Origin: Thermoproteus tenax Kra 1
Lineage (GTDB): Archaea > Thermoproteota > Thermoprotei > Thermoproteales > Thermoproteaceae
Assembly (NCBI RefSeq): GCF_000253055.1
Contig: NC_016070.1
Coordinates: 960,001 to 992,000 of the forward strand
Direction: 5' to 3'
DNA: 32,000 nt
The notes under the pieces were generated by a model that searched no databases, was not told where the DNA came from, and saw only the letters and a list, made by a program, of their open reading frames with translations. Shown one piece after another: positions 5,360-32,000 of the stretch. The translations under genes were made by a program, and so were the position numbers. Position 1 is the stretch's first letter. Every line of letters begins with the position of its first letter.

Positions 5360-5766
5360 TACGAATTGTACTTAAATATTAATGAGTTTAGCTTACATAT
5401 GCCTGAGGAGCAGAAAAAGAAGGAGGAGAAAGAGAGCAAGAAAGTTACAGTTCTGCGGTTCTACGAAGGCGGAATAATGTAGTGGAGCTCGCGTAGTGTA
5501 TAATATTTCGTCATTTTATATCAGAACATCACTGGGAGCTCCAATCGCTATTTAAATCGCTTCGCACCGGAACTAAGCTATTAAAACCTAGGCTATTATA
5601 TAGATCACAATAAAGACAATACATAATTATGTTTTTGAAAATTTGTTTTTTCATAATCAATAAAATTATAATTTCGCTAAATAAAATCTCAATTTTACTT
5701 ATTAATAATTTAAAATATATAAAATATAAAATAATAGAAACTATCCTTATGTAAAAAGATAAAAAT

Positions 5767-5800
5767 TAGCAAAAATAATCTATATAAATAATTTTTGCTA
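5767..5800 (+). promoter_or_regulatory. acs promoter: TATA box (5781-5790) flanked by a perfect 10-bp inverted repeat
   Basis: tagcaaaaat (5767-5776) and atttttgcta (5791-5800) are exact reverse complements. The 14-nt spacer aatctatataaata holds the TATA box ~23 nt upstream of ATG 5808. Confidence 0.5.
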
Positions 5801-5807
5801 CATAACT

Positions 5808-7808
5808 ATGGAAACTCTGGACGTCAAACTACCGTTTAATACTTATGTAATTAATGAACGATATAAGACCTCGCCCGATGCCATCAAGTCCTACTGGGAC
5901 CTCCACAGACGGAGCATCGAGAACTTCGAGGAGTTCTGGGCCTCGATAGCTAGGGAGCTCGAGTGGTTCAAGCCCTGGGACAAAGTGCTGGACGCGTCCA
6001 ACCCGCCCTTCTACAGATGGTTCGTCGGAGGGGAGCTGAATCTGTCCTACCTGGCTCTGGACAGACACGTCAAAACTTGGCGCAAGAACAAGCTCGCCCT
6101 CATATGGGAGGGGGAGCCCGTGGACCAGAGCGGCTACCCGGTGGACAGGAGGAAGCTCACGTACTACGACATGTGGAGGGAGGTGAACAGAGTGGCATGC
6201 ATGCTGCACTGCAACTTCGGGATAGGGAGAGGCGACCGCGTGGCCCTCTATATGCCGATGATTCCAGAGGCCCTTATAGCGATATTGGCCATATGGCGCA
6301 TAGGCGCTGTCCACACTACTATTTTCTCTGGATTCTCCGCCGAGGCTCTCGCCGATAGATTGGCCGACTATAAGCCCAGGGCCGTGATAACTGTGGACGG
6401 CTTCTGGAGGAGGGGCAAGGTGGTGAGGCTGAAGGAGATTGTGGACAAGGCGCTGGAGAAGGCGCCGGGCGCCGAAGCGGTCTTCGTAGTGAGGAGGTTG
6501 GGCCTAAACGACGTGCCTATGACTGAGGGCAGAGACTGGTTCTGGGAGAAGGCCTTGGCCGGCGTAAAACAGAACGCGTATGTGGAGCCCATACCTGTCA
6601 AGAGCGAGGAGATATCCCACATTCTCTACACCTCGGGCACCACCGGGAAGCCCAAGGGCATAATGCACGATACAGGGGGATTCGCCGTCTCAATATACGC
6701 CGATATGAAGCATATATTCGACGTGAAAGACGACGAGGTCTACTGGTGCACCGGCGACATAGGCTGGGGCACCGGCGCCTGGTATGTGGCCTTCGGCCCC
6801 TTCGTCATGGGTCTCACTCAAGTTATGTACGAGGGCGCGCCCGACTTCCCTCAGCCCGACCGCTGGTGGGCGATCATAGAGAGATACGGCGTGAACGTGT
6901 TCTTCTCCTCGCCGACGGCCATCCGCATGTTCATGCGCTACGGCGAGGAGTGGCCGAGGAAGCACGATCTGTCTACCCTCAGGGCCATATTCACTGTAGG
7001 AGAGCCGCAGAATCCCGAGGCCTTCTGGTGGATGTACAAGGTGTTGGGCAACGAGAGGATCTTTGTGGGATCCACCTGGGGTATGACGGAGACTGGCGCC
7101 GTGCCTCTCGATATAGCGCCTGCCCTCTTCCTCCTCCCCATGAAGCCTGGAGCGAACGGCCCGCCCAGGCTCGGCTACGACATAGACGTCGTCGACGAGA
7201 GCGGCAAGCCGGCGCCGCCGGGCGTCAGAGGCTACCTCGTGATCAAGAGGCCGTGGCCGGGCATGCTCCACGGCATATGGGGCGACCCGGAGCGCTACAT
7301 CAAGACGTACTGGTCGAGGTTCCCCGGCATGTTCTACGCCGGCGACTACGCCATAAGGGACCAGGACGGCTACATATGGGTGTTGGGCAGAGCCGACGAG
7401 GTGATAAAGGTCGCGGGCCACCGCCTCGGCACCTACGAGCTGGAGTCGGCGTTTATATCCCACCCGGCCGTCGCCGAGGCCGCAGTGATAGGAGTGCCCG
7501 ACCCGATAAAGGGCGAGGTGCCCATAGCGTTCGTTATACCAAAAGCCGGCGTCAACGCCGACGAGAGACTGGCAACGGAGCTACGCCAGCACATAAGGAA
7601 CACCGTGGGACCAATAGCGGAGCCTGCGCAGATATTCTTCGTGACGAAGCTCCCCAAGACGCGCTCGGGCAAGATAATGCGCAGAGTGCTCAAGGCGGTC
7701 GTCACGGGAGGACAGATCGGCGACGTCACCACGTTGGAGGACGAGACCTCTGTGGAAGAGGTGAAGAGGGTCTACGAGGAAGTGAAAAAAGAAATAACCG
7801 GCCAGTAA
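5808..7808 (+). CDS. acs: Acetyl-CoA synthetase, AMP-forming (666 aa)
   Basis: YTSGTTGKPKG AMP-binding signature (6627-6659), N-terminal FWA...L.W..PW Acs-type region, YWCTGDIGW, and C-terminal LPKTRSGKIMRR. Confidence 0.9.
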   Translation: METLDVKLPFNTYVINERYKTSPDAIKSYWDLHRRSIENFEEFWASIARELEWFKPWDKVLDASNPPFYRWFVGGELNLSYLALDRHVKTWRKNKLALIWEGEPVDQSGYPVDRRKLTYYDMWREVNRVACMLHCNFGIGRGDRVALYMPMIPEALIAILAIWRIGAVHTTIFSGFSAEALADRLADYKPRAVITVDGFWRRGKVVRLKEIVDKALEKAPGAEAVFVVRRLGLNDVPMTEGRDWFWEKALAGVKQNAYVEPIPVKSEEISHILYTSGTTGKPKGIMHDTGGFAVSIYADMKHIFDVKDDEVYWCTGDIGWGTGAWYVAFGPFVMGLTQVMYEGAPDFPQPDRWWAIIERYGVNVFFSSPTAIRMFMRYGEEWPRKHDLSTLRAIFTVGEPQNPEAFWWMYKVLGNERIFVGSTWGMTETGAVPLDIAPALFLLPMKPGANGPPRLGYDIDVVDESGKPAPPGVRGYLVIKRPWPGMLHGIWGDPERYIKTYWSRFPGMFYAGDYAIRDQDGYIWVLGRADEVIKVAGHRLGTYELESAFISHPAVAEAAVIGVPDPIKGEVPIAFVIPKAGVNADERLATELRQHIRNTVGPIAEPAQIFFVTKLPKTRSGKIMRRVLKAVVTGGQIGDVTTLEDETSVEEVKRVYEEVKKEITGQ

Positions 7809-18352: not shown

Positions 18353-18561
18353 GGGGCAGTTCTCTTCTTGGTTATCGTTGAGAAAAATTCTGCGTCTTTT
18401 GGCGGCAGGCGGAGGGCTTAAACGCGTGTATCTATGGCGGCAAGGGCAGTACCATGAGGCGCCCGACCGGGGCTGCACCTGGAGGGGGGCCGTTGCCCCC
18501 ATGCCCGATGGCCCCGCGCCGGAGACAGCTGGGCTGTCAGCGAAGGCGCGGGCGAGGAGGA
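18353..18561 (+). repeat. Copy B of the ~260-nt GC-rich element (5' two-thirds)
   Basis: 18381-18529 is identical, base for base, to the reverse complement of 28025-28173 (149 nt, checked by eye in 10-mers). 18530-18561 continues with 4 mismatches in 32 nt. Similarity is lost after ggcgaggagga. Confidence 0.9.
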
Positions 18562-18616
18562 AGTATTTGGGCATGACGTCGACAGCTATAGCCCAACCAA
18601 CGGAGTGTGTGCCACG

Positions 18617-18628
18617 TAAAAATTATAT
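18617..18628 (+). promoter_or_regulatory. TATA-like box for the pilus-module operon
   Basis: taaaaattatat is centred ~27 nt upstream of ATG 18649. This is the only AT-rich patch between repeat copy B and the first pilin-like gene. Confidence 0.45.
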
Positions 18629-18648
18629 GGCCCTTTGTGGTCTCCACC

Positions 18649-19047
18649 ATGTTGGGCATCTCCGAGATAGTCGCCTCCGTCCTCCTTTTGATCATCAGTG
18701 TGGCCTTCGCCGCATTGATAGCGGCGATCTTCTACAACGCCTATCTCCAGGCTCAGACCTCTCTGGCCGCCGAACAGGCCGCGAAATATTGCGAGGCGCG
18801 GATAGTGGCGGTGACGAACTCGAGCGGAGAGGCCTCGATCTGGGTCTACAACATGGGCCAGACGCGTTGCTCCTTCGCCGGCGCCTACGCCCTCGACGCT
18901 CAAGGCGACGTAGTTGCGGCGTCTCCGACCTCGGCCTCCGCCGAGCCGGGGGCTCTCGTGGAGATAAACACAACTCTGCCCTACGGCTACCCAGGCTATA
19001 GAATCGCCACCCCCCAGGGACAGACATTCGACTACTGGGGGGGATGA
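18649..19047 (+). CDS. Small class-III-signal (type IV pilin-like) protein (~132 aa)
   Basis: MLG|ISEIVASVLLLIISVAFAALIAAIFYNAY is a short n-region, Gly, then a long hydrophobic helix as in archaeal pilins. Start 18649 is preferred over the track's 18607 because the TATA box lies inside the longer ORF. The start remains uncertain because there is no basic residue before the Gly. The stop overlaps the next start (ATGA 19044-19047). Confidence 0.65.
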   Translation: MLGISEIVASVLLLIISVAFAALIAAIFYNAYLQAQTSLAAEQAAKYCEARIVAVTNSSGEASIWVYNMGQTRCSFAGAYALDAQGDVVAASPTSASAEPGALVEINTTLPYGYPGYRIATPQGQTFDYWGG

Positions 19048-20987
19048 GGGGCATATCCTCAGTCGCCGCGTTCGCGATCTTCATAGTGGTCATTGTGGTC
19101 TTCATGCTCGCCGTGCTCTACTACTACCAGTTGATCAAACAGGCTACGATCCAGGGAGTACAGTATGTGAGACAGTCCGCCCTGCCTCCCGACCAGGAAG
19201 CGGCCTTGGTATACAACGGCTCTTGTTATCTTCAGGCGGCCGGCCCGAAGTACCCCTTCTCGTACTATTTCTCGGTCTACGCGCCCACGGGGGCCCTCTT
19301 CGTGAGCTCCGCTGTCTCTCCGGCATCTCCCTATCAGTTCAAGATCGCGTGTCCTCCGGGGCCCGGGATGTATAAGTACGTTGGAGTCAGACAGAGCGGG
19401 CAGCTGGCCTACCTCTACGTGTACGTGGGCCCCATCGCCGTTTGGCTCCAGAGCAATGGAACTATATACTTCGTCAAAAGGGTGGGCGACTCGGTCGGCC
19501 TCACGCTCTACCTCAACGCATACGACAACTCCACGGGGTGGGCGCCCGTTCAGTACTCCGTTGCTCTGACGTATAACCCGGGCCTCCTGTCTTGCTCGCC
19601 CCAGAGCCTCTCGGCGGGACCTGCCGCTTTGAGCCCTGGGCAGACCGGCGTGTACAGACTGGGCATCGTTCGGTGCACTGCGAAGTCCTCCTTCACATCC
19701 ACCACTATCGGCGCAGTGATAACGCAGTCCTACGGCGGCTACGCCTGGACTGTATTTGTCCCCGCGGTGGCCCAGTTGATAAACGCGTCGGCCGCCTCAG
19801 CTCCTCCGCCTACGTCGGCCGCCTGCCCCGCGTCCCTCTCCTTCTCCCCCTCGCCGGGCGAAGTCCTAAGCGGCTACAACGAGCTCAACGGCTGGATAGC
19901 CGCCTGGGGAGCCTACGGAGGAGGGGCGGCCGTGGCCGTGAGGCCGGGCGTGCTCGTGCCAGACTCGCTGCAGACAGGTACTGGGCCTTATTACGTCCAG
20001 CTGAAGAGCCAACAGATCGGGACGCTCGCGGTGAGCGGCGCGCCCGCGACTGTTACAGTGTCGGGCTCTATGCCCAGCTTCCTCTCATCGCTGAATATAA
20101 CTATTGGCAGCTCAACCGTCTACTTAAACGGGTCCTCTGCCGCAGTGACCCTCCAGCCCGGCGTCTACCCCGTCTATGTGTCAGTGAGGGTCCAGCCCAA
20201 TGCCTCAATCGCTGGCTCAAACGCCACGCTCTATATCTCGTGTGGCTCAACGCAGATCCCCCTCCTCTTCGAGATCCCGCAGTGGGGCGACTGGGGAGTA
20301 CGAGTGGATATATACTACAACCCCTCAAACCAGTGGGGCAATCAGCCGAATTGGCAGAGCTATCAATACGTAGGCACTTGGTCGGTGGGCTCCGTTTACT
20401 TCTGGCTGTCGAGTCGGCACCAGAACCCCTACGGCTTCGCCGTCTCGCGACCCCCGTATTTCTCTATTGCCGGTTTAGATGACACGGCGCCCAAGTGGGC
20501 CGCGGCGTGGCTCCCGCAGTACTCCCCTGGCAAATGGGATTTATTCGCCCTTAGATATAGAGGCGTACTCTACATCCCCTGGAGCGATGTGAACTTCGGC
20601 GTTTGGCACGACGACGGAGCCTACGTATCCATGTGTGGAGTGACTTTAAACGCGTGGTATCCAACAGCGCCCCGCTTTGATTTCGTCAAGGCTCACTGCA
20701 GTAGCAGCGACGTACCTGTAGAAATCGACTACTTCGAGGCGTACGTAGAATCCGTGTTGATCTTCGTCGTCGGGAAAGGCTCTGAAGCGTATATACCGAC
20801 TATAGACGGCGCTTGGTACTGCCCTAATTTTACTTGGAAATCAGGCCCCTATAGTTATGGCCCTGGTCCGGGGTATTGTAATAGCCTCTGGTACTTCTTA
20901 CCTGCCTCCAGCGGCAATGTACCGTATTTCGTAGTGGGCAAATACACGCCGGGCACTTCGGACGGCGGTGGCACGCCTGCGCCATAA
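19044..20987 (+). CDS. Large class-III-signal protein (647 aa) with PA14-like C-terminal domain; candidate pilus-associated adhesin
   Basis: N-terminus MRG|ISSVAAFAIFIVVIVVFMLAVLYYY. Many N-x-S/T sequons (NGS, NGT, NST, NAS, NIT, NAT, NFT). Region 20292-20770 (WGVRVDIYYNP...FALRYRGVLYIPWSDVNFGVWHDDGAYVSMCGV...VPVEIDYFEAYVESVL) follows the PA14/GLEYA pattern. Confidence 0.7.
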   Translation: MRGISSVAAFAIFIVVIVVFMLAVLYYYQLIKQATIQGVQYVRQSALPPDQEAALVYNGSCYLQAAGPKYPFSYYFSVYAPTGALFVSSAVSPASPYQFKIACPPGPGMYKYVGVRQSGQLAYLYVYVGPIAVWLQSNGTIYFVKRVGDSVGLTLYLNAYDNSTGWAPVQYSVALTYNPGLLSCSPQSLSAGPAALSPGQTGVYRLGIVRCTAKSSFTSTTIGAVITQSYGGYAWTVFVPAVAQLINASAASAPPPTSAACPASLSFSPSPGEVLSGYNELNGWIAAWGAYGGGAAVAVRPGVLVPDSLQTGTGPYYVQLKSQQIGTLAVSGAPATVTVSGSMPSFLSSLNITIGSSTVYLNGSSAAVTLQPGVYPVYVSVRVQPNASIAGSNATLYISCGSTQIPLLFEIPQWGDWGVRVDIYYNPSNQWGNQPNWQSYQYVGTWSVGSVYFWLSSRHQNPYGFAVSRPPYFSIAGLDDTAPKWAAAWLPQYSPGKWDLFALRYRGVLYIPWSDVNFGVWHDDGAYVSMCGVTLNAWYPTAPRFDFVKAHCSSSDVPVEIDYFEAYVESVLIFVVGKGSEAYIPTIDGAWYCPNFTWKSGPYSYGPGPGYCNSLWYFLPASSGNVPYFVVGKYTPGTSDGGGTPAP

Positions 20988-21014
20988 TATTTAAGAATCG
21001 ATATTTGGGAGGCC

Positions 21015-22880
21015 ATGAAGTTTATTTTGTTGGTTCTGGTTGGGGCAGCCCTAGTTTTTGCACAAGTCTACGTCTTCAGCGATGGCTCTGGCTATGCAGT
21101 TTTTTCACATATGGGCTTCGCTGTGTATTCCATGGATGGGCGGCTTCAGTATGTAGGAGGAGCGCCGGCCTATCCTGGGCCCACTTGTATAGCCTTCTAC
21201 TCAGGAGCCGGCGTCTCGATCGTCACCCCTAGGGGCGCCCTCAGGGCCTTCTATCCGCTGAACTTCACCCCCACCCTCATCGCCTCGGACTGCAGAGCGG
21301 TGGTCGCAGTGAACCAGACCGCCGGCGTGTATATAGCCCCAGGGGTCCGGTACTCGTTCTTCCTTCCGTCTCCTCCCTACTCTGTATCTATGTTGAACGG
21401 CACTGCCTACGTGCTCGACATGGACGGCGATGTGATCGTGGCCTCCGCGTCGGGCACAGCTGTGGAGCATATAGGAGGATATCCCGCCGGGACTGTTGCG
21501 AGCCCGGACTGCGTTGTCGCCTCGGTGGTCCGAGGGGATACGCAGTACTTCTACAGAGTCGACGGAGGAGTCCCCCAGCTGCTGGCGACGAGGAGGGCCG
21601 AGGTCGGCCTCGCCTACTCCTTCGCCGTGGGGCCCGGCTGTCGTTTGGCCTACGCCGACGGTAGGAAGGAGACTGCTGTGGCTGTCGACGGGCCCTACGT
21701 CATCTACGGCACATCGACGGGCTATATAGAGGTCTACTACGGCGGACAGCTCGTCTACGAGCGGAAGGTCGGCGGGCCTGTCCTCTCGGTGTCGTCCTCG
21801 GGCTTAAACATAGCGTACGAGACGCCGGAGGGCGTCTTCCCGCTCATCCTCATCAACGAGACCGTCGTGTCGAACTGCGGCAACTGGTCCCTCTTGAGGG
21901 AGGCGGGGACTGCCTATTCTCCGCCCTCGGTCATCGAATTTGGCAACGGCACTAGGTGCGTGCTCTCCTCCAACTACACTGCGTCTGGAGTCGTCTATGC
22001 AAACTATGTGCGCCAGTACTACGTACAGCTGAGCTCCCCCCATCCGATGGCAGCTTGGCTTCCCGCCGGAGCTCAATTGCCCCAGCCGCCGTCTGTTGTG
22101 GAGGGGCTTGTGGAGTTGATCCCACTTGGGTGGCAAATAGACGGCCGCCTGCTCCAACAAACCGCCGTCGAGGGGCCCTTGGCGGCCTCCGCCGTCTACA
22201 GAGTGGTGCCCGCCGTTAACGGGACTCTCGGCAACGGCACAATGTTGCTGGTCAAAGTAGAGACGCCCACTATCGTCTGGCCGCAACAGCCCGCGTACGC
22301 CGTAGAGAGGCTCTACTACGTCACAGTCTCGCCGCCTGGGAACGTCTCGGGGGGCCCGGGCTACTATCCCGCCGGCTCCTACGTGACTATATCCGCCGGA
22401 TCGCCGCAGGCGCCCCCAGGCTGCAGATACACCTTCTCTGGCTGGAGGGGCGTGAACGCGACTGCGCCCACTGCGACAGTGCTTGTGGCGGGGCCCATCT
22501 CGGCTGCGCCTGAGTTCGTTGAGGAGTGCCGCGTCCAGCTCTATACACAGTACGGCTCTGTGGTCAACGCCCCCGAGTGGGCGCCGCTGGGGGCCGTCCT
22601 AACGCCCTCCGTGGAGCCGACGGCGGTATGGGCTCCGTTCCCATTTAGGTACGTCTTCGTCGGCTGGAACATCAACGGGGCGATATCTAGGAGCTTCGCC
22701 GTCTCCGGGCCCGTGAGCGCTACGGCCGTGTGGGTCCTCGATCCGACCCCCCTATCGGCAATCGCGGCCGCCTTGGCCGCCGCAAGCATCGCAGTGTTCC
22801 TCGCGTCGAGGAGGCGCCGCCAGGGGCGCGCCGCACTGTTTAAATTCTACGCAAGATATTTATCAGTACACTATCAGTAG
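21015..22880 (+). CDS. Secreted, C-terminally membrane-anchored 621-aa protein with three InlB-B-repeat-like modules
   Basis: Sec-type signal MKFILLVLVGAALVFAQV. The beta-rich N-terminal half may be a propeller (repeated ...DGDVIVASASG..., ...GYIEVYYGGQLVYE...). Three modules at 22017-22740 have the Y-Y-V-x-h...[FL]-x-G-W pattern. C-terminal TM plus basic tail LSAIAAALAAASIAVFLASRRRRQGR. GGGAGG lies 3 nt upstream of the ATG. Confidence 0.7.
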   Translation: MKFILLVLVGAALVFAQVYVFSDGSGYAVFSHMGFAVYSMDGRLQYVGGAPAYPGPTCIAFYSGAGVSIVTPRGALRAFYPLNFTPTLIASDCRAVVAVNQTAGVYIAPGVRYSFFLPSPPYSVSMLNGTAYVLDMDGDVIVASASGTAVEHIGGYPAGTVASPDCVVASVVRGDTQYFYRVDGGVPQLLATRRAEVGLAYSFAVGPGCRLAYADGRKETAVAVDGPYVIYGTSTGYIEVYYGGQLVYERKVGGPVLSVSSSGLNIAYETPEGVFPLILINETVVSNCGNWSLLREAGTAYSPPSVIEFGNGTRCVLSSNYTASGVVYANYVRQYYVQLSSPHPMAAWLPAGAQLPQPPSVVEGLVELIPLGWQIDGRLLQQTAVEGPLAASAVYRVVPAVNGTLGNGTMLLVKVETPTIVWPQQPAYAVERLYYVTVSPPGNVSGGPGYYPAGSYVTISAGSPQAPPGCRYTFSGWRGVNATAPTATVLVAGPISAAPEFVEECRVQLYTQYGSVVNAPEWAPLGAVLTPSVEPTAVWAPFPFRYVFVGWNINGAISRSFAVSGPVSATAVWVLDPTPLSAIAAALAAASIAVFLASRRRRQGRAALFKFYARYLSVHYQ

Positions 22881-22883
22881 CCC

Positions 22884-23372
22884 ATGAGGACGAGGGGTAT
22901 CGAGCCAATAGTCGCCGCTGTGTTGTTGATAGTGTTGGCGGTCATTGGCGCTGTGTTGCTCTACCTCTGGTTCGCTGGATACGTCTCTGGGACTACCTCG
23001 CAGGCCAACCAGCTCTCGGCCTCAGAGAGGCTCAGCATAGAGGCCGCCAATCTAACTTGGACTTCAGGGAGGGGCGCCTACGCCTATCTCTATATCAGAA
23101 ACATCGGCGGAGTCAACTCTACGCTGTCGACAGCCTATCTGCTCCTCCCCGGCTCCTCCAACCCGCTGTGCACTACGAACACAATTACGGTCTACGCCGG
23201 CCTCAGCACGACGGCGGGACCCAGACAGACGCCTGTTATACCGGTCGGTCAAGACAACTTGGTGTACATAAGCTTCGGGCCGGGCTGCACTGTGACCAGC
23301 GGCTACACCTACGTGGTCAAGCTTGTGACGCAGCAGGGCTCGCAGTTCGCGGTCACAGTGACCGCCAGCTGA
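22884..23372 (+). CDS. Archaeal type IV pilin (162 aa)
   Basis: MRTRG|IEPIVAAVLLIVLAVIGAVLLYLWFAGY is a textbook archaeal class III signal peptide and pilin/flagellin-type N-terminal helix. The C-terminal domain is beta-rich with NLT and NST sequons. Confidence 0.8.
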   Translation: MRTRGIEPIVAAVLLIVLAVIGAVLLYLWFAGYVSGTTSQANQLSASERLSIEAANLTWTSGRGAYAYLYIRNIGGVNSTLSTAYLLLPGSSNPLCTTNTITVYAGLSTTAGPRQTPVIPVGQDNLVYISFGPGCTVTSGYTYVVKLVTQQGSQFAVTVTAS

Positions 23373-23381
23373 ACCCCTAAT

Positions 23382-24140
23382 ATGAATATTTTTTTCCAAT
23401 GGCTCCCTCTCATCGTTTTTTCCTCCTCAGCCGCCCTTATAGCTGGCGGCTATCTCCCCTGGAGGAGGGCTGTGTTCAGAGCCAAGCTGGAGGGACAGAT
23501 CCCAGAGACCCTCCGGGCCCTCGCCGACTCGGTGGCCGGAGGCATGGACCTGAGGTCCGCCTTCGAGGTTGTGGCTTCGCTGGGCCTCAGGCCGATGGCC
23601 GACGTAGCGAGGAGGATCCTCGCCCTCACGGCCGTAGGGGGCATGACTGTGGAGGAGGCATTGTGGCAAGTGGCCGAGGGGACGGGCTCGGCGAACTTCA
23701 AGAGGTTCGCGTTGATAGTGGCGGAGGCCGCCCGCAGCGGCGCCAAGTTGCCCGAGGTTTTGGGGACTGCGGCGAGGACGTTCGCCACAGTCGTCGAGTT
23801 CAGACGCGACATTGAGTCCCAGCTGAGGCCCTACGTGGCCTTGTATTACGCACTGATAGTCACGTTCGTAGTCCTCGCCGATGTCCTCGTCTACTTCCTC
23901 CTGCCGCAGTTGGCCCAACTTGCCTCTAGAGTGTCAGGCCCAGGGATAACTCCAGCGGTGATAAACAGGGAGGACGCCATAGTCGTGCTCTACTTCTCAG
24001 CGCTTGCGCAAGCTCTGATCGGCGGGCTTATAATCGGGAGGATCGTCTACTTCTCGCCGTCCGCCGGGCTGGTGCACGCGGGCATCGCCTCGGGAGCGGC
24101 CGGGCTGGCTCTGCTTCTGCCCCTATGGGCGAGGTTCTGA
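23382..24140 (+). CDS. T4P platform protein, single T2SSF (TadB/TadC/FlaJ-like) domain (252 aa)
   Basis: One N-terminal TM, a cytoplasmic helical domain (IPETLRALADSVAGGMDLRSAFEVVA...LPEVLGTAARTF) and C-terminal TM helices, the GspF/TadC domain layout. 16-nt overlap with the ATPase gene. Confidence 0.75.
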   Translation: MNIFFQWLPLIVFSSSAALIAGGYLPWRRAVFRAKLEGQIPETLRALADSVAGGMDLRSAFEVVASLGLRPMADVARRILALTAVGGMTVEEALWQVAEGTGSANFKRFALIVAEAARSGAKLPEVLGTAARTFATVVEFRRDIESQLRPYVALYYALIVTFVVLADVLVYFLLPQLAQLASRVSGPGITPAVINREDAIVVLYFSALAQALIGGLIIGRIVYFSPSAGLVHAGIASGAAGLALLLPLWARF

Positions 24141-25516
24141 AGCTCCTAGAGGAGTACGAGGTCGCCCAATATGTCCACGTAATGATATATGTAGACAAAC
24201 ACGGCTTTAGGGCCTACAGGGCCGTGGAGCCGCCCCTTAGCGATGAGGAGCGGGAGCTTCTGTTGAGGCTTAAACGCGCGATCCAGAACGTAGGCGATGT
24301 GAAAGACGGCATATTGAAGCTCACAAGGGAGCGCAGAGAGGAATATCTGGCGCAGCTCGTGGACAGAGCCGCGCGAGAGTTCAAACTGAACGTGGAGGAG
24401 GAGAGGAGGGGGAAAATAATGTATTATCTGAGGCGTGATCTGTTGGGCTACGGCGTGTTGGATCCGCTAGTGAGAGACCCCTTCGTGGAGGATATACATT
24501 TCGACGGGCCCGGCGTGCCGATCTATGTGTGGCACAGCCGCTGGGAGTCTCTGAGGACGGACATAGTCCTAGACCTGGCCGAGGCCGACGCCTATGTCCA
24601 GAGGTTCTCCGCGCTCGTCGGAAAACCTGTGTCATACGCCGACCCCATACTCGAGGGCATGTTGCCGGAGGGCTACCGCCTAGAGTTGGTCGCGCCGCCC
24701 TCCTCGCCCAGAGGTCCCTCGTTCGTCATCAGAAAGTTCTTCGTAGAGCCGATCACCTTAATAGACTTGGTCAAAATGGGCACGATATCCGCCGAGGCTG
24801 TGGCATATCTCTGGCTCATGTTAGACTACGGCAGAAACATAGTCATTCTGGGGCCCACTGGGGCGGGCAAGACCACGTTGTTGAACGCGCTCTTGCACTT
24901 GATACGCCCCGACGCGAAGGTGCTCACTATAGAGGACACTAGGGAGATCAACATAGTCCACGAGCACTGGCAAGCTCTGTTGACCAGGCCCAGCAGATCC
25001 GAGGGCGTTAGGGATGTGTCCGCGTTCGACCTCCTCGCCGTTGCCATGAGGTCTCGCCCAGACTACGTGGTCGTCGGCGAGATCCGCGGCGAGGAGGCCT
25101 ACGTCCTCTTCCAAGCCTTCGGCTCGGGGCACGCCGGCGCCACCACTATGCACGCCGAGACTATAGAGGACGCCGTGAGGCGACTGCTGACTAGGCCCAT
25201 GTCGGTCCCCCCGATGTTGATAGGCCTCGCCCATGTCTTTGTGCGCATAATGAGGGTGAAGATAGGAGAAAGGATAGCGAGGAGAGTCGTGGAAATAGCG
25301 GAGAACATGGGCATAGCGAGGGGCGGGAGGCCGAGGTTGAACTACGTCTTTAGGTGGAGCCCGGAAAAAGACTCCTTGGAGCGAGTCGGGGAGAGCAGAC
25401 ACCTGGAGACTATCTCCCGCGTTAGGTTCGTCCCCATGGACGCGCTTTTAAGGGAGTTCGAGAGAAGGAAGGAGCTGATAGGCGAAATGGTGAAACAAGG
25501 CTTCTCGTCCCCATAA
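24125..25516 (+). CDS. Type IV pilus/secretion ATPase (FlaI/TadA/GspE superfamily, 463 aa)
   Basis: Walker A GPTGAGKTTLLNAL (24851-24877), TIEDTREI Asp box, Walker B/His box region DYVVVGEIRGEEA...GHAGATTMHA. Confidence 0.9.
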   Translation: MGEVLKLLEEYEVAQYVHVMIYVDKHGFRAYRAVEPPLSDEERELLLRLKRAIQNVGDVKDGILKLTRERREEYLAQLVDRAAREFKLNVEEERRGKIMYYLRRDLLGYGVLDPLVRDPFVEDIHFDGPGVPIYVWHSRWESLRTDIVLDLAEADAYVQRFSALVGKPVSYADPILEGMLPEGYRLELVAPPSSPRGPSFVIRKFFVEPITLIDLVKMGTISAEAVAYLWLMLDYGRNIVILGPTGAGKTTLLNALLHLIRPDAKVLTIEDTREINIVHEHWQALLTRPSRSEGVRDVSAFDLLAVAMRSRPDYVVVGEIRGEEAYVLFQAFGSGHAGATTMHAETIEDAVRRLLTRPMSVPPMLIGLAHVFVRIMRVKIGERIARRVVEIAENMGIARGGRPRLNYVFRWSPEKDSLERVGESRHLETISRVRFVPMDALLREFERRKELIGEMVKQGFSSP

Positions 25517-25590
25517 GCTGTGGCGAGGGTCTTCTCTAGCTACAGGGCAGATCCCGAGGGGACTCTGGAGGCAGTGCGGCAGGGGAAAAT

Positions 25591-26376
25591 ATGAGGCTCC
25601 TCTTCGATCTATACAGGCTGAGCGGCCTCGCCTTCTCCTACAGGAGGTATATCGCCGTTCTGATGGGCGCGCCTGCTGCGGTCGGCTTAGCCGTCGGCGC
25701 GGCGGCCTCCCTTTTGATCTCATCGCCGGCCGGCTTGATCTTGGGCGCTGCGGCGGCCCTTATTACCTTCGCAGTTATTCTGGGGTACCCCGTCCACCTT
25801 GTCTCCTCCAGACGCACCCACTTCGAGAACAACTTCCCCTACACTCTGTCGGTCCTATTGCCTCTGTTGACGGCCGGAGTGCCGCTGGGAAGGGCCGTCG
25901 CACGCCTCGCCGAAGTTGAGGACGACAAATACATCGCCCGCGAGCTCTCCCTTGCGGTGAGAGATATTGTGGTCATGGGCTCGAGCCCCTTGGAGGCCTT
26001 GCTGCACAGCGCCGAGAGAGTGCCCAGCGCCAGCTACAGAGAGACTGTGGATATATTAGTTAGGTCGTCTAGAGTCACGGAGAGACTCGACCTAGTTCTT
26101 ATGGCGAGGCTCGACTGGATGTTGAGACAGAAGCAGATCAGGGCGGCCTCGTTGGCGCGATCTATCTCGCTCTTGTTTGAAATATACGCAGTTGCGGCAA
26201 TGTTGTTGCCCATTTTGGTTTTCACGATGGCGCTCGCCTTGAGCCCGCTGGGCGTCCTCCAAGTGGCCGGGCTATCGCTGGATCCCCTCTCCGTGATGAT
26301 CCTAGCTGGCTTGATCTACTCGCCGATAGCGGGGGCCATGTTCTATATCTTGTTCGACGCATCTGCAACTATATGA
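25591..26376 (+). CDS. T4P platform protein, second single T2SSF-like domain (261 aa)
   Basis: N-terminal TM helices, a helical soluble domain (FPYTLSVLLPLLTAGVPLGRAVARLAE...SPLEALLHSAERVP...) and C-terminal TMs. No alternative start exists between the in-frame stop at 25537-25539 and ATG 25591. Confidence 0.7.
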   Translation: MRLLFDLYRLSGLAFSYRRYIAVLMGAPAAVGLAVGAAASLLISSPAGLILGAAAALITFAVILGYPVHLVSSRRTHFENNFPYTLSVLLPLLTAGVPLGRAVARLAEVEDDKYIARELSLAVRDIVVMGSSPLEALLHSAERVPSASYRETVDILVRSSRVTERLDLVLMARLDWMLRQKQIRAASLARSISLLFEIYAVAAMLLPILVFTMALALSPLGVLQVAGLSLDPLSVMILAGLIYSPIAGAMFYILFDASATI

Positions 26377-26460
26377 AAACTTCTTTTAAAGAGAATTTTT
26401 GCTGAAATAAAGTCGATATCTATTGTTATTGATCGTTAAAAATATTAAAATGGGTGACAT

Positions 26461-26751
26461 ATGCTCGCAGTGTGTCTCACCAAAGAGCTCCTCGTGAAGT
26501 TCTACTCCTCCATGGACTTCAGTCTGAGGGCTCTGATCCACTACAAGTCCCTCGCCGCCTTCGGGTACCCCTTCGACAAAATACTCCTGGAGGAGCCGTG
26601 GCGGACCTACGGAGCTCTGAGGGAGCTCCTGGGAGATCACAACGCACAGCTCATCCTCTCAATGATGTCGAAATGGTTGAACAAAAACGGGTGTAGCCTC
26701 GATATAGAAAAATTAAAGAAGTATCTAAGTGATAGAGGGCTATGGACTTGA
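26461..26751 (+). CDS. Hypothetical 96-aa protein, coupled to the KaiC-like ATPase
   Basis: ORF preceded by an AT-rich promoter-like spacer (ttaaaaatattaaaa 26436-26450). 10-nt overlap with the downstream gene. Predicted helical, with no motif I recognise. Confidence 0.5.
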   Translation: MLAVCLTKELLVKFYSSMDFSLRALIHYKSLAAFGYPFDKILLEEPWRTYGALRELLGDHNAQLILSMMSKWLNKNGCSLDIEKLKKYLSDRGLWT

Positions 26752-27869
26752 TGGAGTTAGCAAAACTATCGGGCGTTACTCTGGTCTACGGGCCAGCCGG
26801 CGCGGGCAAGACCACCTTCGCAGCTTGGTATGTGTACGCCCGCTCCGCGCGTGCCCTGTGGATCTCATTGTTTGAGGACGAGGCCACGTTCCGGCGAAAT
26901 ATGGCAAATCTCGGCTACAACTTCGGCGATAGGTTGATCTTCTGGGAGGCGCCGGCGGTGGAGGATCTGGCCGCCGTCTTTGAGCTGATCGCAGACGCTG
27001 TGGCAAAGAATAAGCCCGATATAGTGGTTCTGGACTCTGTGACTGAGCTTATATCGGGCGGCGACGTCCACGCTGGCCTTAGGGCGGTTCACAATCTTAT
27101 CTATAGGCTTATGAAGAGCATTGGAGCCGATGTGGTGATGACGGCGGAGAGACAAGTCGCAGAGAGGCTTATGTACATCGCCGATAATGTGATCGAGCTT
27201 CGATACGATATCTTCCCCTACGGCACTGTGAGGGAGATGGTCGTGAGGAAGATAAGAGGGTCTAAAGCCGGCTACGCGTTGCCCTACGCCATAGCTGAGG
27301 GGCTCGGCCTCGTCATCATGAAGCCGCCCTCTCTAAGGCGGGCTGGCGAGGTTCTGAAAACCGGCGTTGTCTGTTTCGATGAAACGTTCGGAGGTCTGGC
27401 GCCTGGAGCTGTGTATGCGCTGATAGGTCCGGTGGGAGCCGGCAAGTCTACGTTGATGTTGAAAGTTGCTGAGGGTCTGAGGAGAGCGGGTAAAAGGGCC
27501 GTCTACCTCAGCTTTTTGGGCGATGCCGATATGTTGAAGAACAGATACGATGTAGAGGCCTACAATGCTCCGTTGGACGTGGAGGAGTTCCTGCTCCAGT
27601 TCTTCTCGCTTGCCGTCAGAGAGCGGGCCGATGCAGTCTTGATAGACGCGATAGACTTAATGGCGCAGTTCTTTGGAAAAGAGGTGTTTTTCACCGTGTT
27701 GCTTCAAATTATAAGAATAGCCAAGGCCTCGGGCGTACCCGTCGTGATCTCCCTCGCTCAAGACTGGAATATAACAAACTTCCTAGATGCAGTAGCATAT
27801 ATCTCCAGCGGCACTATAAAGGCCGTGAAGTCTCCGCTCGGGAGATCGGCTTCTGAGACCAAATGTTAG
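26742..27869 (+). CDS. KaiC/RecA-superfamily ATPase with two P-loop domains (375 aa)
   Basis: Walker A 1 GPAGAGKTT (26790-26816) with Walker B DIVVLDSVT. Walker A 2 GPVGAGKST (27426-27452) with AVLIDAIDL. The short-domain, KaiC/ArlH-like architecture and the position next to a T4P locus support the call. Confidence 0.8.
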   Translation: MDLMELAKLSGVTLVYGPAGAGKTTFAAWYVYARSARALWISLFEDEATFRRNMANLGYNFGDRLIFWEAPAVEDLAAVFELIADAVAKNKPDIVVLDSVTELISGGDVHAGLRAVHNLIYRLMKSIGADVVMTAERQVAERLMYIADNVIELRYDIFPYGTVREMVVRKIRGSKAGYALPYAIAEGLGLVIMKPPSLRRAGEVLKTGVVCFDETFGGLAPGAVYALIGPVGAGKSTLMLKVAEGLRRAGKRAVYLSFLGDADMLKNRYDVEAYNAPLDVEEFLLQFFSLAVRERADAVLIDAIDLMAQFFGKEVFFTVLLQIIRIAKASGVPVVISLAQDWNITNFLDAVAYISSGTIKAVKSPLGRSASETKC

Positions 27870-27935: not shown

Positions 27936-28196
27936 CCGTCTGTCCCTAGGCGCCCACCGCTGATCGCAGCCGGCCACTTGCGCCCAGGGGCCTCCTCCTC
28001 GCCTGCGCCTTCGCCGACGGCCCGGCTGTCTCCGGCGCGGGGCCATCGGGCATGGGGGCAACGGCCCCCCTCCAGGTGCAGCCCCGGTCGGGCGCCTCAT
28101 GGTACTGCCCTTGCCGCCATAGATACACGCGTTTAAGCCCTCCGCCTGCCGCCAAAAGACGCAGAATTTTTCTAGCGATCGGTATGAAACAGCCCC
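27936..28196 (-). repeat. Copy C (longest, apparently full-length) of the ~260-nt GC-rich element
   Basis: Its reverse complement contains everything found in copies A and B: 28025-28173 equals 18381-18529, and 27936-28063 is ~94% identical to 721-848. The track ORFs across it are P/R/G/A-rich in both strands. Confidence 0.9.
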
Positions 28197-28257: not shown

Positions 28258-28668
28258 ATGCCCAAGAGGGCGATCCCCCTAAGGGTCTCCGACGTTATGG
28301 TCAGAGAGGTTGTGACCGCCGGCAAGAATACCCCCTTGAGGGAGGTGGCCAACACCATGTACGAGAAGAGGATCGGCAGCGTCGTGATAACCGACGAGTC
28401 GGGCAGAGTGGCCGGGATAGTGACCGAGCGCGACGTAGTCTACGCGTGCGCCCGCGGCATGTCGCCCGACTCGCCCATATGGATGATCATGACCGAGAGC
28501 CCCATAACGATCGAGCCCGAGGCGCCCCTGCTTGAGGCCGTGGAGAAGATGAGGAATCTAAACGCCAGACACCTCCCAGTGGTGGACAAAGAGGGGAGGC
28601 CCATCGGTATATTGAGCATGCGCGACGTGTTGGACCTCGCCTCCCTATTGATAAAAATAAGGGAATAA
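28258..28668 (+). CDS. CBS-domain pair protein (136 aa)
   Basis: Two CBS units (GIVTERDVVYA, GILSMRDVLDL). TATA-like taataaaagataataa lies ~28 nt upstream. Confidence 0.85.
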   Translation: MPKRAIPLRVSDVMVREVVTAGKNTPLREVANTMYEKRIGSVVITDESGRVAGIVTERDVVYACARGMSPDSPIWMIMTESPITIEPEAPLLEAVEKMRNLNARHLPVVDKEGRPIGILSMRDVLDLASLLIKIRE

Positions 28669-28678
28669 AAAGGGGTTT

Positions 28679-30046
28679 TTACGAACTGAAGAGCGGCTGT
28701 CCCTGCGGGAAGACCGTTATCTGGCCGGTTCTGCCCTCATAGAACCCAGCGTTTATCCACGTTGGCGTCCCGTTTACTATCGCCACGCCCATTATCAGAT
28801 AGTTGGCATATATTCTGTCGTGGTATTGGTCTAGATACACTGGGCCCGTGACGCCGACGTAGGTGCCGTTCTGGCCCCACTGCTCCAACACTGAGTTTAT
28901 GACGGTGGGGTCTGTGGAGCCGGTCTGAGCTATGGCGGTCATTATGAACATAGCAGCATCATACGCGTACGGATCGTAGGCTACAGGCGGGTGTCCACAG
29001 AACTGAGTGTATTCTTTGACGAACTGTTGATAGCGCGGATCGCTGGGATTGGGCGCTGCTATAGTGGCCAAGAACTTGGCGGCCGCCAACGCCTTGCCGG
29101 CGCCTTGCAACAACGTGGTGGAGCCGGCTATGCCGTCAGTCCCTATCCATCTGACCTTCGAGAGAACTGGGTCGCTAGCGGCGGCCTGGGCTACAGCCAC
29201 GCCGTCTTGCTCAAACGTCACCATCACAAACGCGGCGTCGGGGCCGGGGGTGCCCAACGCTTGGGAGGCCTTCTGGACGGCGGCCTGCTCGGCGGCCGGC
29301 ATAGCCGAGGGAGATGGGTCGTAGCCGAATGAGCCTAGCACCTGTATCCCGTATTTAGCCGAGGCGTTGGCTATCGCGGCCGAGAGCCCTTGTCCCCAAG
29401 TGTCGGATCTATAGACTATTACAATACGTTTGACCCCCAGATAGTGTAGGAGAGCCGCTATGGCGTTGCCCTGGTAGAAGTCTGTGGGCACCAGCCTGAA
29501 GACATAGGGCTTGGGCACGGCGAGGGCCGGGGACGTTGAGGACTGGCTGACGATGATTATGTGGTTCTGCTCCGCGAAGCCCATCACCGCCGACACCTCG
29601 GCGCTGGCCATGGGCCCTACCACGAACCTAATGCCCTGCGCGTATAGAGTCTGGAGCTTCTGTAGGGCGGTGTTGGGGTCTGTGGCCGTATCCTGAACCA
29701 CCAGCTGGAATTGTATGCCCTTGCTCGCGAACATCTGGTTTGCGTCGTGGACTGCAAGCTGTACAGCGCACTGAGAGCCGAGGCCATAGCTCTGCAGCGC
29801 CCCCGTCAGCGGCAGCAACGCGCCGATGGTGACCGTCTGGACGGCTTGAGTTGTCGTCGACGTAGTGGCGGTCGCCGTTGACTGCGGAGACGTAGTAGTC
29901 GTGGTCGCCGTCGACTGCGTCGTAGTTGTGGTGGCGGACACATAGGCGGACGAGGCCGGCCTCTGGGAGGCAAGATATGCGGCGACAGCCGCTATTATTA
30001 TCACCAATACAACGACCCCGATTATTATGCCTGTCTTCGAGGCCAT
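28679..30046 (-). CDS. Branched-chain amino acid-type (LivK/type I PBP) ABC substrate-binding protein, membrane anchored with Thr-rich linker
   Basis: N-terminal anchor GIIIGVVVLVIIIAAVAAYLA, Thr/Ser/Gln linker, then TIGALLPLTGALQSYG..., typical of Leu/Ile/Val-binding proteins. Divergent from the livH/livM-like genes. Confidence 0.85.
   Translation of the reverse strand: MASKTGIIIGVVVLVIIIAAVAAYLASQRPASSAYVSATTTTTQSTATTTTTSPQSTATATTSTTTQAVQTVTIGALLPLTGALQSYGLGSQCAVQLAVHDANQMFASKGIQFQLVVQDTATDPNTALQKLQTLYAQGIRFVVGPMASAEVSAVMGFAEQNHIIIVSQSSTSPALAVPKPYVFRLVPTDFYQGNAIAALLHYLGVKRIVIVYRSDTWGQGLSAAIANASAKYGIQVLGSFGYDPSPSAMPAAEQAAVQKASQALGTPGPDAAFVMVTFEQDGVAVAQAAASDPVLSKVRWIGTDGIAGSTTLLQGAGKALAAAKFLATIAAPNPSDPRYQQFVKEYTQFCGHPPVAYDPYAYDAAMFIMTAIAQTGSTDPTVINSVLEQWGQNGTYVGVTGPVYLDQYHDRIYANYLIMGVAIVNGTPTWINAGFYEGRTGQITVFPQGQPLFSS
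29858..29937 (-). repeat. Imperfect ~30-nt tandem repeat (about 2.6 units) encoding the Thr-rich linker
   Basis: cgtagtggcggtcgccgttgactgcggaga (29861-29890), cgtagtagtcgtggtcgccgtcgactgcgt (29891-29920), then cgtagttgtggtggcgg. The protein reads TTTTTQSTATTTTTSPQSTATATTSTTTQ. Confidence 0.5.
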
Positions 30047-31090: not shown

Positions 31091-32000
31091 ACAGACACGT
31101 CGTAGTTCTGGCCGCCCTTGTCGCCCTCGCCGTAGCTCTGTCCGTCTTGCTCGCCCTCTTCCCTGAGCTCAAGGGCATACGCATCTTGCTAGAGAACCTC
31201 CTGATATATATTACTATATATGGAATATATGTGCTCAGCCTCAACCTTGAGGTCGGCTACCTCGGAATACCCCAGTTCGGCAAAGTGATGTTTCTGACGA
31301 TAGGGGCCATAGCGGTAGGCGGCATTGCGACTAAGCTCATGCTCTTGATCTATCAGAGCGTGGTCGCTTCGTCAATAGGCGTATCCCCGCTGAGCAATAT
31401 CCACAACTACTGCACTCTCTATCAGTACTCTGTGATCAGTATAGTGAACCAACAGCTCGCCCTAAACCCCGTCCTTGGGCTCGGCTATCTGCTCTTCGGG
31501 ATTATTCTGGCTATGATACTCTCGGCCGTCCTCGGTCTGTTGTTTGCATATCCGGCGATAAGGCTGAAGGAGGACTACTTGGGCATATTGCTCCTGGTCA
31601 GCGCCGAGTTCATCCGGATCGTCACCTACTACGCTACGCCGGTTGCGTGCGGCGTCAATGGAGCAGTTATTCCAGACCCCTTCGCCTGGGCCGTTGGCGA
31701 GGAGAGGACCCTAGTCTTCCTGGCGGCCTCGGCCCTCTTCTTGGTCGTTGCCTTCTTGGTGTTCCAGAGGTTGGGGAACTCGCCCTTCGGGAGGGCACTT
31801 AGGGCTATACGCGACGCCGAGACTGCAGCGTCGGTGTTCGGCAAAGACATCGTTAAGTTTAGAATCAGAGTGCTCGCCGTATCCTCGGCCTTCGGAGGCC
31901 TGGCCGGAGCTCTACTGGCCTACTATTTCGATTACACTATTCTGGGCACCTTCTTGCCCATTTATACATTCATCGGTTGGACTATGCTCATACTGGGAGG
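31087..32000 (+). CDS. livM: Branched-chain amino acid ABC permease (LivM-like), 3' end outside the window
   Basis: My own translation of frame 1 from ATG 31087 gives MNRHVVVLAALVALAVALSVLL...YVLSLNLEVGYLGIPQFGKVMF...AYPAIRLKEDYLGILLLVSAEFIRIV..., open to base 32000. It is absent from the track only because no stop codon is reached. Confidence 0.8.
   Translation, partial: MNRHVVVLAALVALAVALSVLLALFPELKGIRILLENLLIYITIYGIYVLSLNLEVGYLGIPQFGKVMFLTIGAIAVGGIATKLMLLIYQSVVASSIGVSPLSNIHNYCTLYQYSVISIVNQQLALNPVLGLGYLLFGIILAMILSAVLGLLFAYPAIRLKEDYLGILLLVSAEFIRIVTYYATPVACGVNGAVIPDPFAWAVGEERTLVFLAASALFLVVAFLVFQRLGNSPFGRALRAIRDAETAASVFGKDIVKFRIRVLAVSSAFGGLAGALLAYYFDYTILGTFLPIYTFIGWTMLILG

Follow-up and report, generated by a model that had tools for sequence, protein, structure and literature searches.

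The closest described relatives of the system analysed here are the type IV pilus (T4P) loci of subclade 4B, which is specific to the Thermoproteales. Loci of this subclade combine an ATPase with two TadC-like genes and two pilins of the PilA family, and they also contain a KaiC-like protein (arCOG01174) paired with a helical protein (arCOG03758). Optionally, they include arCOG05471, in which cysteines are conserved and the C-terminus forms an anchor, and a large protein with a signal peptide that is taken for an adhesin or minor pilin (Makarova et al. 2016, PMC4858521). A flagellar-like pilus of Pyrobaculum calidifontis was solved by cryo-electron microscopy in 2023 (PDB entry 8FK7). Its filament has a 10-strand packing like that of archaellar filaments, without supercoiling, and its pilin has an N-terminal helix of intermediate length, longer than in other archaeal T4P, with a polar end. 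The P. calidifontis locus has a KaiC-family ATPase and no ArlF or ArlG; the 8FK7 paper discusses the KaiC-like protein as a link to the archaellum, and argues that the T4P of Thermoproteales are the likely ancestors of the archaellum. We analysed a stretch of 32,000 nucleotides of the genome of Thermoproteus tenax Kra1 (positions 960,001 to 992,000 of contig NC_016070.1), hereafter called the window. It contains nine pilus-module genes, TTX_1129 to TTX_1137 (window 18649-27869), for which we use the shorthand g1 to g9. This region is very probably the T. tenax Kra1 copy of the subclade 4B T4P system.

Parts of this locus were listed before. The 2011 genome paper of T. tenax named TTX_1130-1136 among three putative T4P operons and annotated TTX_1134 as VirB11/GspE. 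It pointed to TTX_0979, which lies outside the window, as a prepilin peptidase candidate, and stated that T. tenax has no flagellum operon. Adding 960,000 to our window coordinates gives the gene coordinates of its Table S8. A 2026 preprint names the 4B cluster of T. tenax as such, with a RecA-like ATPase and a DEATH-like protein, and lists CBS proteins as associated with it (bioRxiv 10.64898/2026.04.22.720090). Hence, the locus, its parts list and the idea of a link between KaiC and the archaellum are already published, and an orthologous filament has already been solved. New in our analysis are a nonsense codon in the ATPase gene, read-through of g3, a dispersed repeat on either side of the module, and a polymorphism in gene orientation together with mosaic ancestry; all of these are minor.

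Every component listed for subclade 4B is present in T. tenax, and we found no difference of substance. The ATPase (g6) is flanked by two TadC-like genes (g5 and g7) and accompanied by two pilins of the PilA family (g4 and g1). The assignment rests on the papers that name the 4B loci of T. tenax and T. uzoniensis and on the identity of g6 to its relatives: g6 is 75-80% identical to Pyrobaculum and Thermoproteus orthologues in the same type of locus. The P. calidifontis locus was retrieved via the sequence of its pilin (contig L011). One strand encodes a g2-like protein (>903 amino acids) and a g1-like protein (137 amino acids). The other strand encodes, in this order, a pilin of 142 amino acids, a T2SSF protein (256), a T2SSE protein (491), a second T2SSF protein (261), a protein of 93 amino acids and a KaiC-like protein (373), which are 43, 55, 76, 66, 55 and 44% identical to g4 to g9, respectively. 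The span from the g1-like to the KaiC-like gene (2696-8156 of L011) measures 5461 bp, exactly the region depicted in the paper on the filament. A preliminary description of the T. tenax locus, made from the DNA alone, had presented it as an uncharacterised system with an unusual parts list. This claim does not hold, as the gene set equals that of the published subclade and the T. tenax operon was listed in 2011; moreover, a Pyrobaculum T4P locus with the same gene set and order, of which that description had itself thought, exists for g4 to g9.

All nine genes were confirmed as forward-strand open reading frames (ORFs) by a six-frame ORF list. The spacings from g1/g2 to g8/g9 are -4, 27, 3, 9, -16, 74, 84 and -10 nucleotides, and the g1/g2 overlap consists of ATGA at 19044-19047. 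Thus, the nine co-directional genes, their coordinates, overlaps and gaps agree with the preliminary description. The tight packing that it stressed stands as far as the distances are concerned; the gap of 74 nucleotides is the severed end of g6, and the gap of 3 nucleotides gives no evidence of coupling (see below). We also agree that the system is not an archaellum, Ups or Aap system; for T. tenax, the 2011 genome paper states the lack of a flagellum operon. Pfam searches found no archaellum accessory family among the nine proteins or the other large ORFs of the window, and no prepilin peptidase family among the ORFs of the 32-kb window, in line with what had been noted earlier. Prepilin peptidases are commonly encoded away from T4P loci, and their local absence therefore does not exclude membership of the T4P. 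The other large ORFs encode enzymes of coenzyme A metabolism, ABC and MFS transporters, glutamate dehydrogenase, PanD and CBS proteins.

Three proteins, g1, g2 and g4, have N-termini that resemble class III signals. Each has one strongly hydrophobic segment that begins at residue 7-9, straight after a glycine, and these N-termini are kept in the orthologues. The three prepilin-type signals noted in the preliminary description are therefore supported by sequence conservation, and for g1 and g4 also by a match to the 8FK7 pilin. The g4 gene (TTX_1132; 22884-23372, +) encodes a pilin of 162 amino acids (arCOG03871). It matches 8FK7 with E = 1.1e-25 over residues 1-159, and the alignment has no gaps over the first ~60 residues, including the polar extension of the helix (YVSGTTSQANQLSASERLSIEA vs YVTRATSQAEQLSAAEQLKIEA); the helix length of g4 was derived from this alignment. 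We found 177 homologues of g4, mainly in Thermoproteus and Pyrobaculum. The g1 gene (TTX_1129; 18649-19047, +) encodes a protein of 132 amino acids (arCOG03870) with the N-terminus MLG|ISEIVAS and a hydrophobic segment at residues 7-25. It belongs to the PilA family, matches 8FK7 with E = 7.8e-8, and may be a second or minor pilin. Its orthologues are 66-73% identical, and a TATA-like element (AAAAATTATAT) lies 20-30 nucleotides upstream of the gene.

The larger g2 gene (TTX_1130; 19044-20987, +) encodes 647 amino acids (arCOG07037) with a class III-like N-terminus, MRG|ISSVAAF. The first 60 residues are nearly invariant across orthologues, and the protein contains 10 cysteines and nine N-x-S/T sequons. 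TTX_1130 was FlaFind-positive in the 2011 genome paper, and proteins of this type have been called adhesin-like or rich in immunoglobulin (Ig) domains (Makarova et al. 2016, PMC4858521; bioRxiv 10.64898/2026.04.22.720090). We conclude that g2 is probably a large minor pilin or adhesin. None of g2, g3 and g8 matched a Pfam family. For g2, a profile search with three sequences gave no PDB match, and PA14 was not matched by Pfam at E = 10 when the isolated C-terminal 231 amino acids were searched; a PA14 domain had been suggested in the preliminary description, and our own impression of one originated from a WHDDG motif. A single-sequence AlphaFold model of g2 was unusable (predicted local distance difference test score, pLDDT, of 32.5).

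The g3 gene (TTX_1131; 21015-22880, +) encodes 621 amino acids (arCOG05471). Hydrophobic segments at residues 3-21 and 580-598, i.e. at both ends, are in agreement with the Sec-type secretion and C-terminal membrane anchor proposed earlier. The protein has 11 sequons and eight cysteines, its orthologues in T. uzoniensis and P. neutrophilum are 67-70% identical, and arCOG05471 has been described as 'S-layer-like' (Makarova et al. 2016, PMC4858521). T. tenax g3 lacks the stop codon present in these relatives (TAA in P. neutrophilum, TGA in T. uzoniensis). It is extended by 19 codons, ending in QGRAALFKFYARYLSVHYQ before the next stop, across AT-rich DNA at window 22824-22883. The resulting tail of 19 amino acids is specific to T. 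tenax and described as cytoplasmic. The extension covers the TATA-like element of g4 (ATATTTAT, 21-28 nucleotides upstream of the g4 ATG) and stops 3 nucleotides short of this ATG. The short g3/g4 gap is thus a result of the lost stop codon and no evidence of coupling, and the TATA-like element indicates that g4 has probably retained its own promoter.

The platform is encoded by two genes on either side of the ATPase gene. The upstream half, g5 (TTX_1133; 23382-24140, +; 252 amino acids), is a single-domain TadC/T2SSF protein (Pfam T2SSF, 1.8e-12) with ~4 hydrophobic segments, and its orthologues at the same locus position are 55-68% identical. The downstream half, g7 (TTX_1135; 25591-26376, +; 261 amino acids; arCOG01812, TadC), is likewise a single-domain T2SSF protein (1.4e-13), with ~6 hydrophobic segments and orthologues that are 61-76% identical. 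These results confirm the two separate T2SSF proteins seen previously. The ATPase gene g6 (TTX_1134; 24125-25516, +) encodes an assembly ATPase of the GspE/FlaI type, of 463 amino acids as encoded, with 100% identity to CCC81774 of T. tenax. It matches T2SSE with 1.3e-31 and has a Walker A motif GPTGAGKT at residue 243 (window 24851-24877), where the preliminary description had placed the P-loop of a FlaI/TadA-type ATPase. Its closest PDB structures are Archaeoglobus fulgidus GspE (2OAP, 3e-96) and FlaI (4II7, 2e-67). The three P-loops of the module, one in g6 and two in g9, were detected even as a DNA repeat family.

In T. tenax Kra1, g6 is ended by a TAA codon at 25514-25516, a position that encodes Tyr or His in relatives. 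Downstream of it, the frame of g6 continues over 78 nucleotides (25517-25594, +), which encode a conserved tail of 26 amino acids, AVARVFSSYRADPEGTLEAVRQGKI, followed by a stop. The TGA that closes this tail overlaps the ATG of g7 as ATGA, in the same way as in the relatives. This C-terminal tail is present in 111 of the 112 full-length g6 homologues, down to 39% identity, with T. tenax as the sole exception. A contig from sequencing run SRR28178317, which is 98.85% identical over 1830 bp, has TAC at this position and encodes a full ATPase of 489 amino acids. From this comparison, either a single C-to-A change turned TAC into the nonsense codon TAA in Kra1, or the reference contains a sequencing error. 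The 74 nucleotides between g6 and g7 are therefore not intergenic; they are the 3' end of g6, cut off by the nonsense codon. The Kra1 genome was sequenced with 8-fold Sanger coverage at an error rate below 0.4e-4 (2011 genome paper).

The last two genes form a separate unit. Its promoter appears to lie in the AT-rich intergenic region at 26377-26469 (+), as read from the sequence: AAAAATATTAAAA is found at 26437-26449, 21-33 nucleotides upstream of a GTG at 26470, and window 26001-27000 is of lower GC content. The g8 gene (TTX_1136; 26461-26751, +; arCOG03758) encodes a small helical protein of 96 amino acids when read from the ATG. All orthologues, however, start with MCLTK or MCVSK, and the ATG at 26461 adds three residues (MLA) to this start. 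The GTG at 26470, which is also the annotated start, is therefore probably the true start and would give 93 amino acids. In this respect the earlier account of the g8-g9 unit needs revision; its AT-rich promoter, which we infer from AAAAATATTAAAA, and its two-domain KaiC-like ATPase stand. An alignment of seven g8 orthologues has 20 invariant columns. The protein is predicted to be all-helical, with six helices in an AlphaFold2 model (pLDDT 70.5), and its family is very small, with 25 clusters among 1.84 billion representative proteins. Makarova et al. (2016, PMC4858521) considered arCOG03758 to be DEATH-like and to replace KaiB, and the 2026 preprint repeats this proposal (bioRxiv 10.64898/2026.04.22.720090). 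A profile search with g8 against PDB sequences gave chance matches only.

The g9 gene (TTX_1137; 26742-27869, +; 375 amino acids; arCOG01174) encodes a two-domain member of the KaiC superfamily, with two P-loops and a Pfam match to KaiC in two stretches (2.5e-27). Only domain 1 has the full set of catalytic motifs, i.e. the Walker A motif GPAGAGKT, an invariant FEDE and an hhhhDS Walker B, and it is apparently competent. Domain 2 has the Walker A motif GPVGAGKS and a GD in place of the Glu pair, and in Pyrobaculum orthologues the Walker B Asp is replaced by Arg; these substitutions suggest that it is probably inactive. The best PDB matches of g9 are full-length KaiC proteins, and none of its 44 PDB matches is a chain named FlaH or ArlH. 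A Pfam search of the nine module proteins found no thioredoxin-like or KaiB family beside g9, the neighbour of which is the helical g8. The g8/g9 pair is conserved in six relatives. Its order is reversed, with the KaiC-like gene first, in Pyrobaculum sp. WP30 (contig L003, 12308-13674) and P. neutrophilum (contig L014, 13483-14911). In the KaiC-like gene of WP30, the C-terminal half aligns in another reading frame, and a frameshift is possible.

The nine-gene set is complete in T. uzoniensis and P. neutrophilum, and most of the module genes are found in Thermoproteus sp. UBA157, Pyrobaculum sp. WP30 and several contigs of metagenome-assembled genomes (MAGs). All genes are co-directional in T. 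tenax and P. neutrophilum. In T. uzoniensis, UBA157, a Thermoproteaceae MAG, WP30 and P. calidifontis, g1-g2-g3 are divergent from g4-g9, and in one MAG (contig L004) the g4 pilin lies on the strand of g1 and g2. The first three T. tenax genes are nearer to P. neutrophilum than to T. uzoniensis (g1, 73 vs 66% identity; g2, 72 vs 53%; g3, 70 vs 67%), while the reverse holds for g4 (58 vs 70%), g5 (57 vs 64%), g8 (55 vs 65%) and g9 (44 vs 62%). This mosaic pattern of sequence identity suggests block exchange, and the g1-g3 adhesin block might be a cassette that can be exchanged and re-oriented. If so, its exchange would diversify pilus tips between lineages. The mosaic ancestry of g1-g3 and g4-g9 illustrates the modular evolution already proposed for these systems. 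An inversion of g1-g3 specific to T. tenax was considered as the source of the co-directional order and the 3-nucleotide junction, and was rejected because this order, together with a homologous g3-g4 junction, is found in P. neutrophilum as well. The genomic surroundings of the module differ from one relative to the next. In T. tenax, for instance, the CBS and binding-protein genes are on the g9 side, and in T. uzoniensis on the g3 side, so that rearrangement around the module has, judging from gene order, clearly occurred.

The module is bracketed exactly, from g1 to g9, by an inverted repeat of 192 nucleotides with 95% complementarity (18381-18572 and 27982-28173), of which a core of 181 nucleotides aligns at 98%. 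These arms belong to a dispersed, GC-rich repeat of ~240 nucleotides (repeat R), of which the window contains three copies. R1 (18381-18572, +) is truncated at its 3' end and lies between panD and g1; R2 (27936-28176, -) is the longest copy and lies between g9 and a CBS gene; R3 (721-848, +) is truncated at its 5' end and lies 17.5 kb away. An annotated hypothetical gene, TTX_1138 (27946-28155, -), falls inside R2 and is probably not a real gene. On present evidence we reject a structured RNA: the repeat gave no Rfam match at the gathering threshold or at E up to 1 and no tRNA, and its folding energy was no better than that of shuffled sequences (z-scores 0.35 and 0.75). A viral, plasmid-like or widespread element was likewise rejected, as repeat R had no match in the phage records, the viral contigs and the metagenome contigs that were searched (the last with two patterns), nor in the loci of the relatives. 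Two genes for CBS-domain proteins, at 288-719 (143 amino acids) and 28258-28668 (136 amino acids), each adjoin a copy of the repeat, with R3 directly after the first and R2 directly before the second.

Several observations weigh against a functional subclade 4B pilus in Kra1 as we describe it. The conserved last 26 residues are missing from the Kra1 ATPase, so that the system may be weakened, and the locus may even be non-functional in this strain. Pilin_N matched g1 and g4 below the Pfam threshold only, and g1 is without the usual Lys or Arg ahead of the glycine (MLG|I). As g4 shares only 43-45% identity with the pilin of P. calidifontis, a 10-strand packing is predicted rather than seen. Our Pfam and PDB searches did not reproduce an Ig/hook-like or PA14-like character for g2, nor a DEATH-like fold for g8, for which the best match in a Foldseek search against the PDB had E = 4.6. 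Moreover, we infer from the genes that a filament is formed, that g1, g2 and g4 are processed, and that there is any contact between g9 and g6.

The truncated ATPase leads to the most serious alternative, namely that the Kra1 locus is a decaying or inactive copy in which the nonsense mutation abolishes assembly, so that nothing is built in the sequenced strain. The TAA strips a tail found in all other full-length homologues (111/111), the contig at 98.85% identity has TAC and an intact protein of 489 amino acids, and g3 has also lost its ancestral stop. However, the other eight genes are full length relative to their orthologues, the catalytic core of the ATPase is intact and the DNA of its tail is still perfectly in frame, which implies that the change is either very recent or a sequencing error. 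We therefore regard an inactive locus as a possibility to be taken seriously, but not as the probable state of affairs. Another alternative starts from the KaiC-like protein, which the preliminary description took as a hint of a regulated or motor-like filament, an idea already contained in the 8FK7 paper. Here, g9 with g8 would act on the ATPase as ArlH does, in a motor-like or switchable proto-archaellum filament capable of rotation, retraction or surface motility instead of adhesion alone. This fits with the membership of ArlH in the KaiC family, with the archaellum-like 10-strand packing and the lengthened, partly polar helix of the P. calidifontis pilus, to which g4 aligns without gaps, and with reports of Pyrobaculum motility without an archaellum operon and the proposal that Thermoproteales T4P are archaellum ancestors. 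Yet, no supercoiling was seen across about 300 P. calidifontis cells, and ArlF/ArlG stator genes are absent from the P. calidifontis locus and from the ORFs of our window. Furthermore, g9 has two domains, the second degenerate, and matches KaiC chains rather than FlaH or a single-domain ArlH, and the own promoter and variable order of g8-g9 better fit a regulator than a core part of a motor. A motor-like, ArlH-type role for g9 is thus possible but not favoured; we consider the full motor scenario unlikely.

The two remaining alternatives concern the identity and the mobility of the module. That the locus represents an unrecognised class of archaeal filament, with a set of parts not found in any T4P locus described so far, could be argued from the absence of this gene set from the archaellum, Ups, Aap and Bas systems and from the lack of Pfam families for g2, g3 and g8. 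Since the gene set is that of the published subclade 4B, the orthologous P. calidifontis filament has been solved and the T. tenax operon was listed in 2011, we consider a new class extremely improbable. Alternatively, the nine genes might form a mobile or invertible cassette, in which R1 and R2 mediate inversion or transfer of the 9.4-kb block. The 192-nucleotide arms, 95% complementary and placed exactly around g1-g9, would suit such a cassette, as would the different genomic context of the module in each relative, the CBS and binding-protein genes on opposite module sides in T. tenax and T. uzoniensis, and the different closest relatives of g1-g3 and g4-g9. Against this, Pfam searches of the window ORFs revealed no transposase or recombinase in or beside the module, and the third partial copy at 721-848 shows that R is dispersed, and not a dedicated terminal repeat. 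A flip of the whole module would, moreover, leave every promoter-gene relation unchanged and would therefore not act as a switch. These points make a mobile cassette very unlikely.

We thus return to a subclade 4B pilus, for which the following assembly scheme can be proposed. The major pilin g4, the second or minor pilin g1 and the adhesin g2 would be inserted into the membrane via their N-terminal helices. A PibD-type prepilin peptidase encoded elsewhere, with TTX_0979 as candidate, would cleave them after the glycine. A split platform of g5 and g7, resembling bacterial TadB/TadC, would be used by a hexamer of g6 to push the pilins into a helical filament. Homology to 8FK7 predicts for this filament a long, partly polar N-terminal helix and a 10-strand, non-supercoiled packing. 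The g3 protein would be a glycosylated, cysteine-rich extracellular protein on a C-terminal anchor, and probably an accessory associated with the envelope or S-layer. The separately promoted g8 and g9 would act as a cytoplasmic regulatory pair, with the small helical partner as a substitute for KaiB. In analogy to the action of ArlH on ArlI, this pair probably serves as a gate on assembly or on expression.

A more specific version of this last step is that the KaiC-like protein and its arCOG03758 partner form a switch, driven by phosphorylation, that binds to the assembly ATPase like ArlH to ArlI. We think this rather unlikely. If it were true, the 4B system would be a pilus with regulated extension and retraction, or with torque, and the 4B systems of Thermoproteales would represent an extant transition from adhesive pili to the archaellum. 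The role of a KaiC-like ATPase with a helical partner beside a T4P system bears on the origin of the archaellum motor. As the switch idea has been published for P. calidifontis, novelty would lie in demonstrating it. For users of T. tenax, the nonsense codon, which is lacking in a nearly identical environmental allele, calls for caution, as Kra1 may be a natural partial loss-of-function strain or its reference sequence may be in error.

Further features of the window lie outside the module. A stretch of low GC content (5360-5807; GC of 0.41 in window 5001-6000 vs about 0.59 around it) separates a divergent ATP-cone gene (4796-5359, -) from an acetyl-CoA synthetase-like gene (5808-7808, +), and is presumably a long divergent promoter region. 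Two short, imperfect tandem repeats were found at 29855-29934 and 31101-31158, with periods of 33 and 30 nucleotides; the former is part of a periplasmic binding protein gene (28679-30046, -), in its Thr/Ser-rich linker region.

Among the other known systems, the T4P of P. arsenaticum (6W8U, Par_PilA) comes from the same organism family and serves as a virus receptor. It differs from the T. tenax system by another pilin family, an ATPase of clade 4E and a pilin gene that stands alone, and PDB searches with g1 and g4 did not bring up 6W8U, even when E values of up to 10 were allowed. The bacterial Tad/Flp systems resemble the T. tenax locus in their ATPase, as g6 matches CpaF at 2e-45, and in the two separate T2SSF proteins that flank or follow the ATPase. 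In contrast to these systems, T. tenax has archaeal-type pilins and no secretin or outer-membrane parts, and its KaiC-like pair and anchored g3 have no Tad/Flp counterpart. With the archaellum, T. tenax shares a FlaI-related ATPase (4II7, 2e-67), an ATPase of the KaiC superfamily, subunits with class III signals and, among these, pilins with a lengthened helix. However, its locus is without ArlF, ArlG, ArlX and ArlCDE, its platform consists of two single-domain proteins instead of one ArlJ, its KaiC-like protein has two domains and a small partner whereas ArlH has a single domain, and the homologous filament of P. calidifontis is not supercoiled.

The closest counterpart is the P. calidifontis system, the filament of which has been observed, whereas the T. 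tenax pilus is known here from genes alone. The nine T. tenax genes are co-directional, while the g1- and g2-like genes of P. calidifontis lie on the strand opposite to its g4-g9, in divergent orientation; the P. calidifontis g2 is larger (>903 amino acids), and no g3 was seen in the retrieved stretch. The globular domain of the T. tenax pilin is 18-20 residues longer, and the T. tenax ATPase is truncated. Both loci share the same gene order of pilin, TadC, ATPase, TadC, a protein of ~93 amino acids and a two-domain KaiC-like protein, and in both the g1- and g2-like genes adjoin this core.

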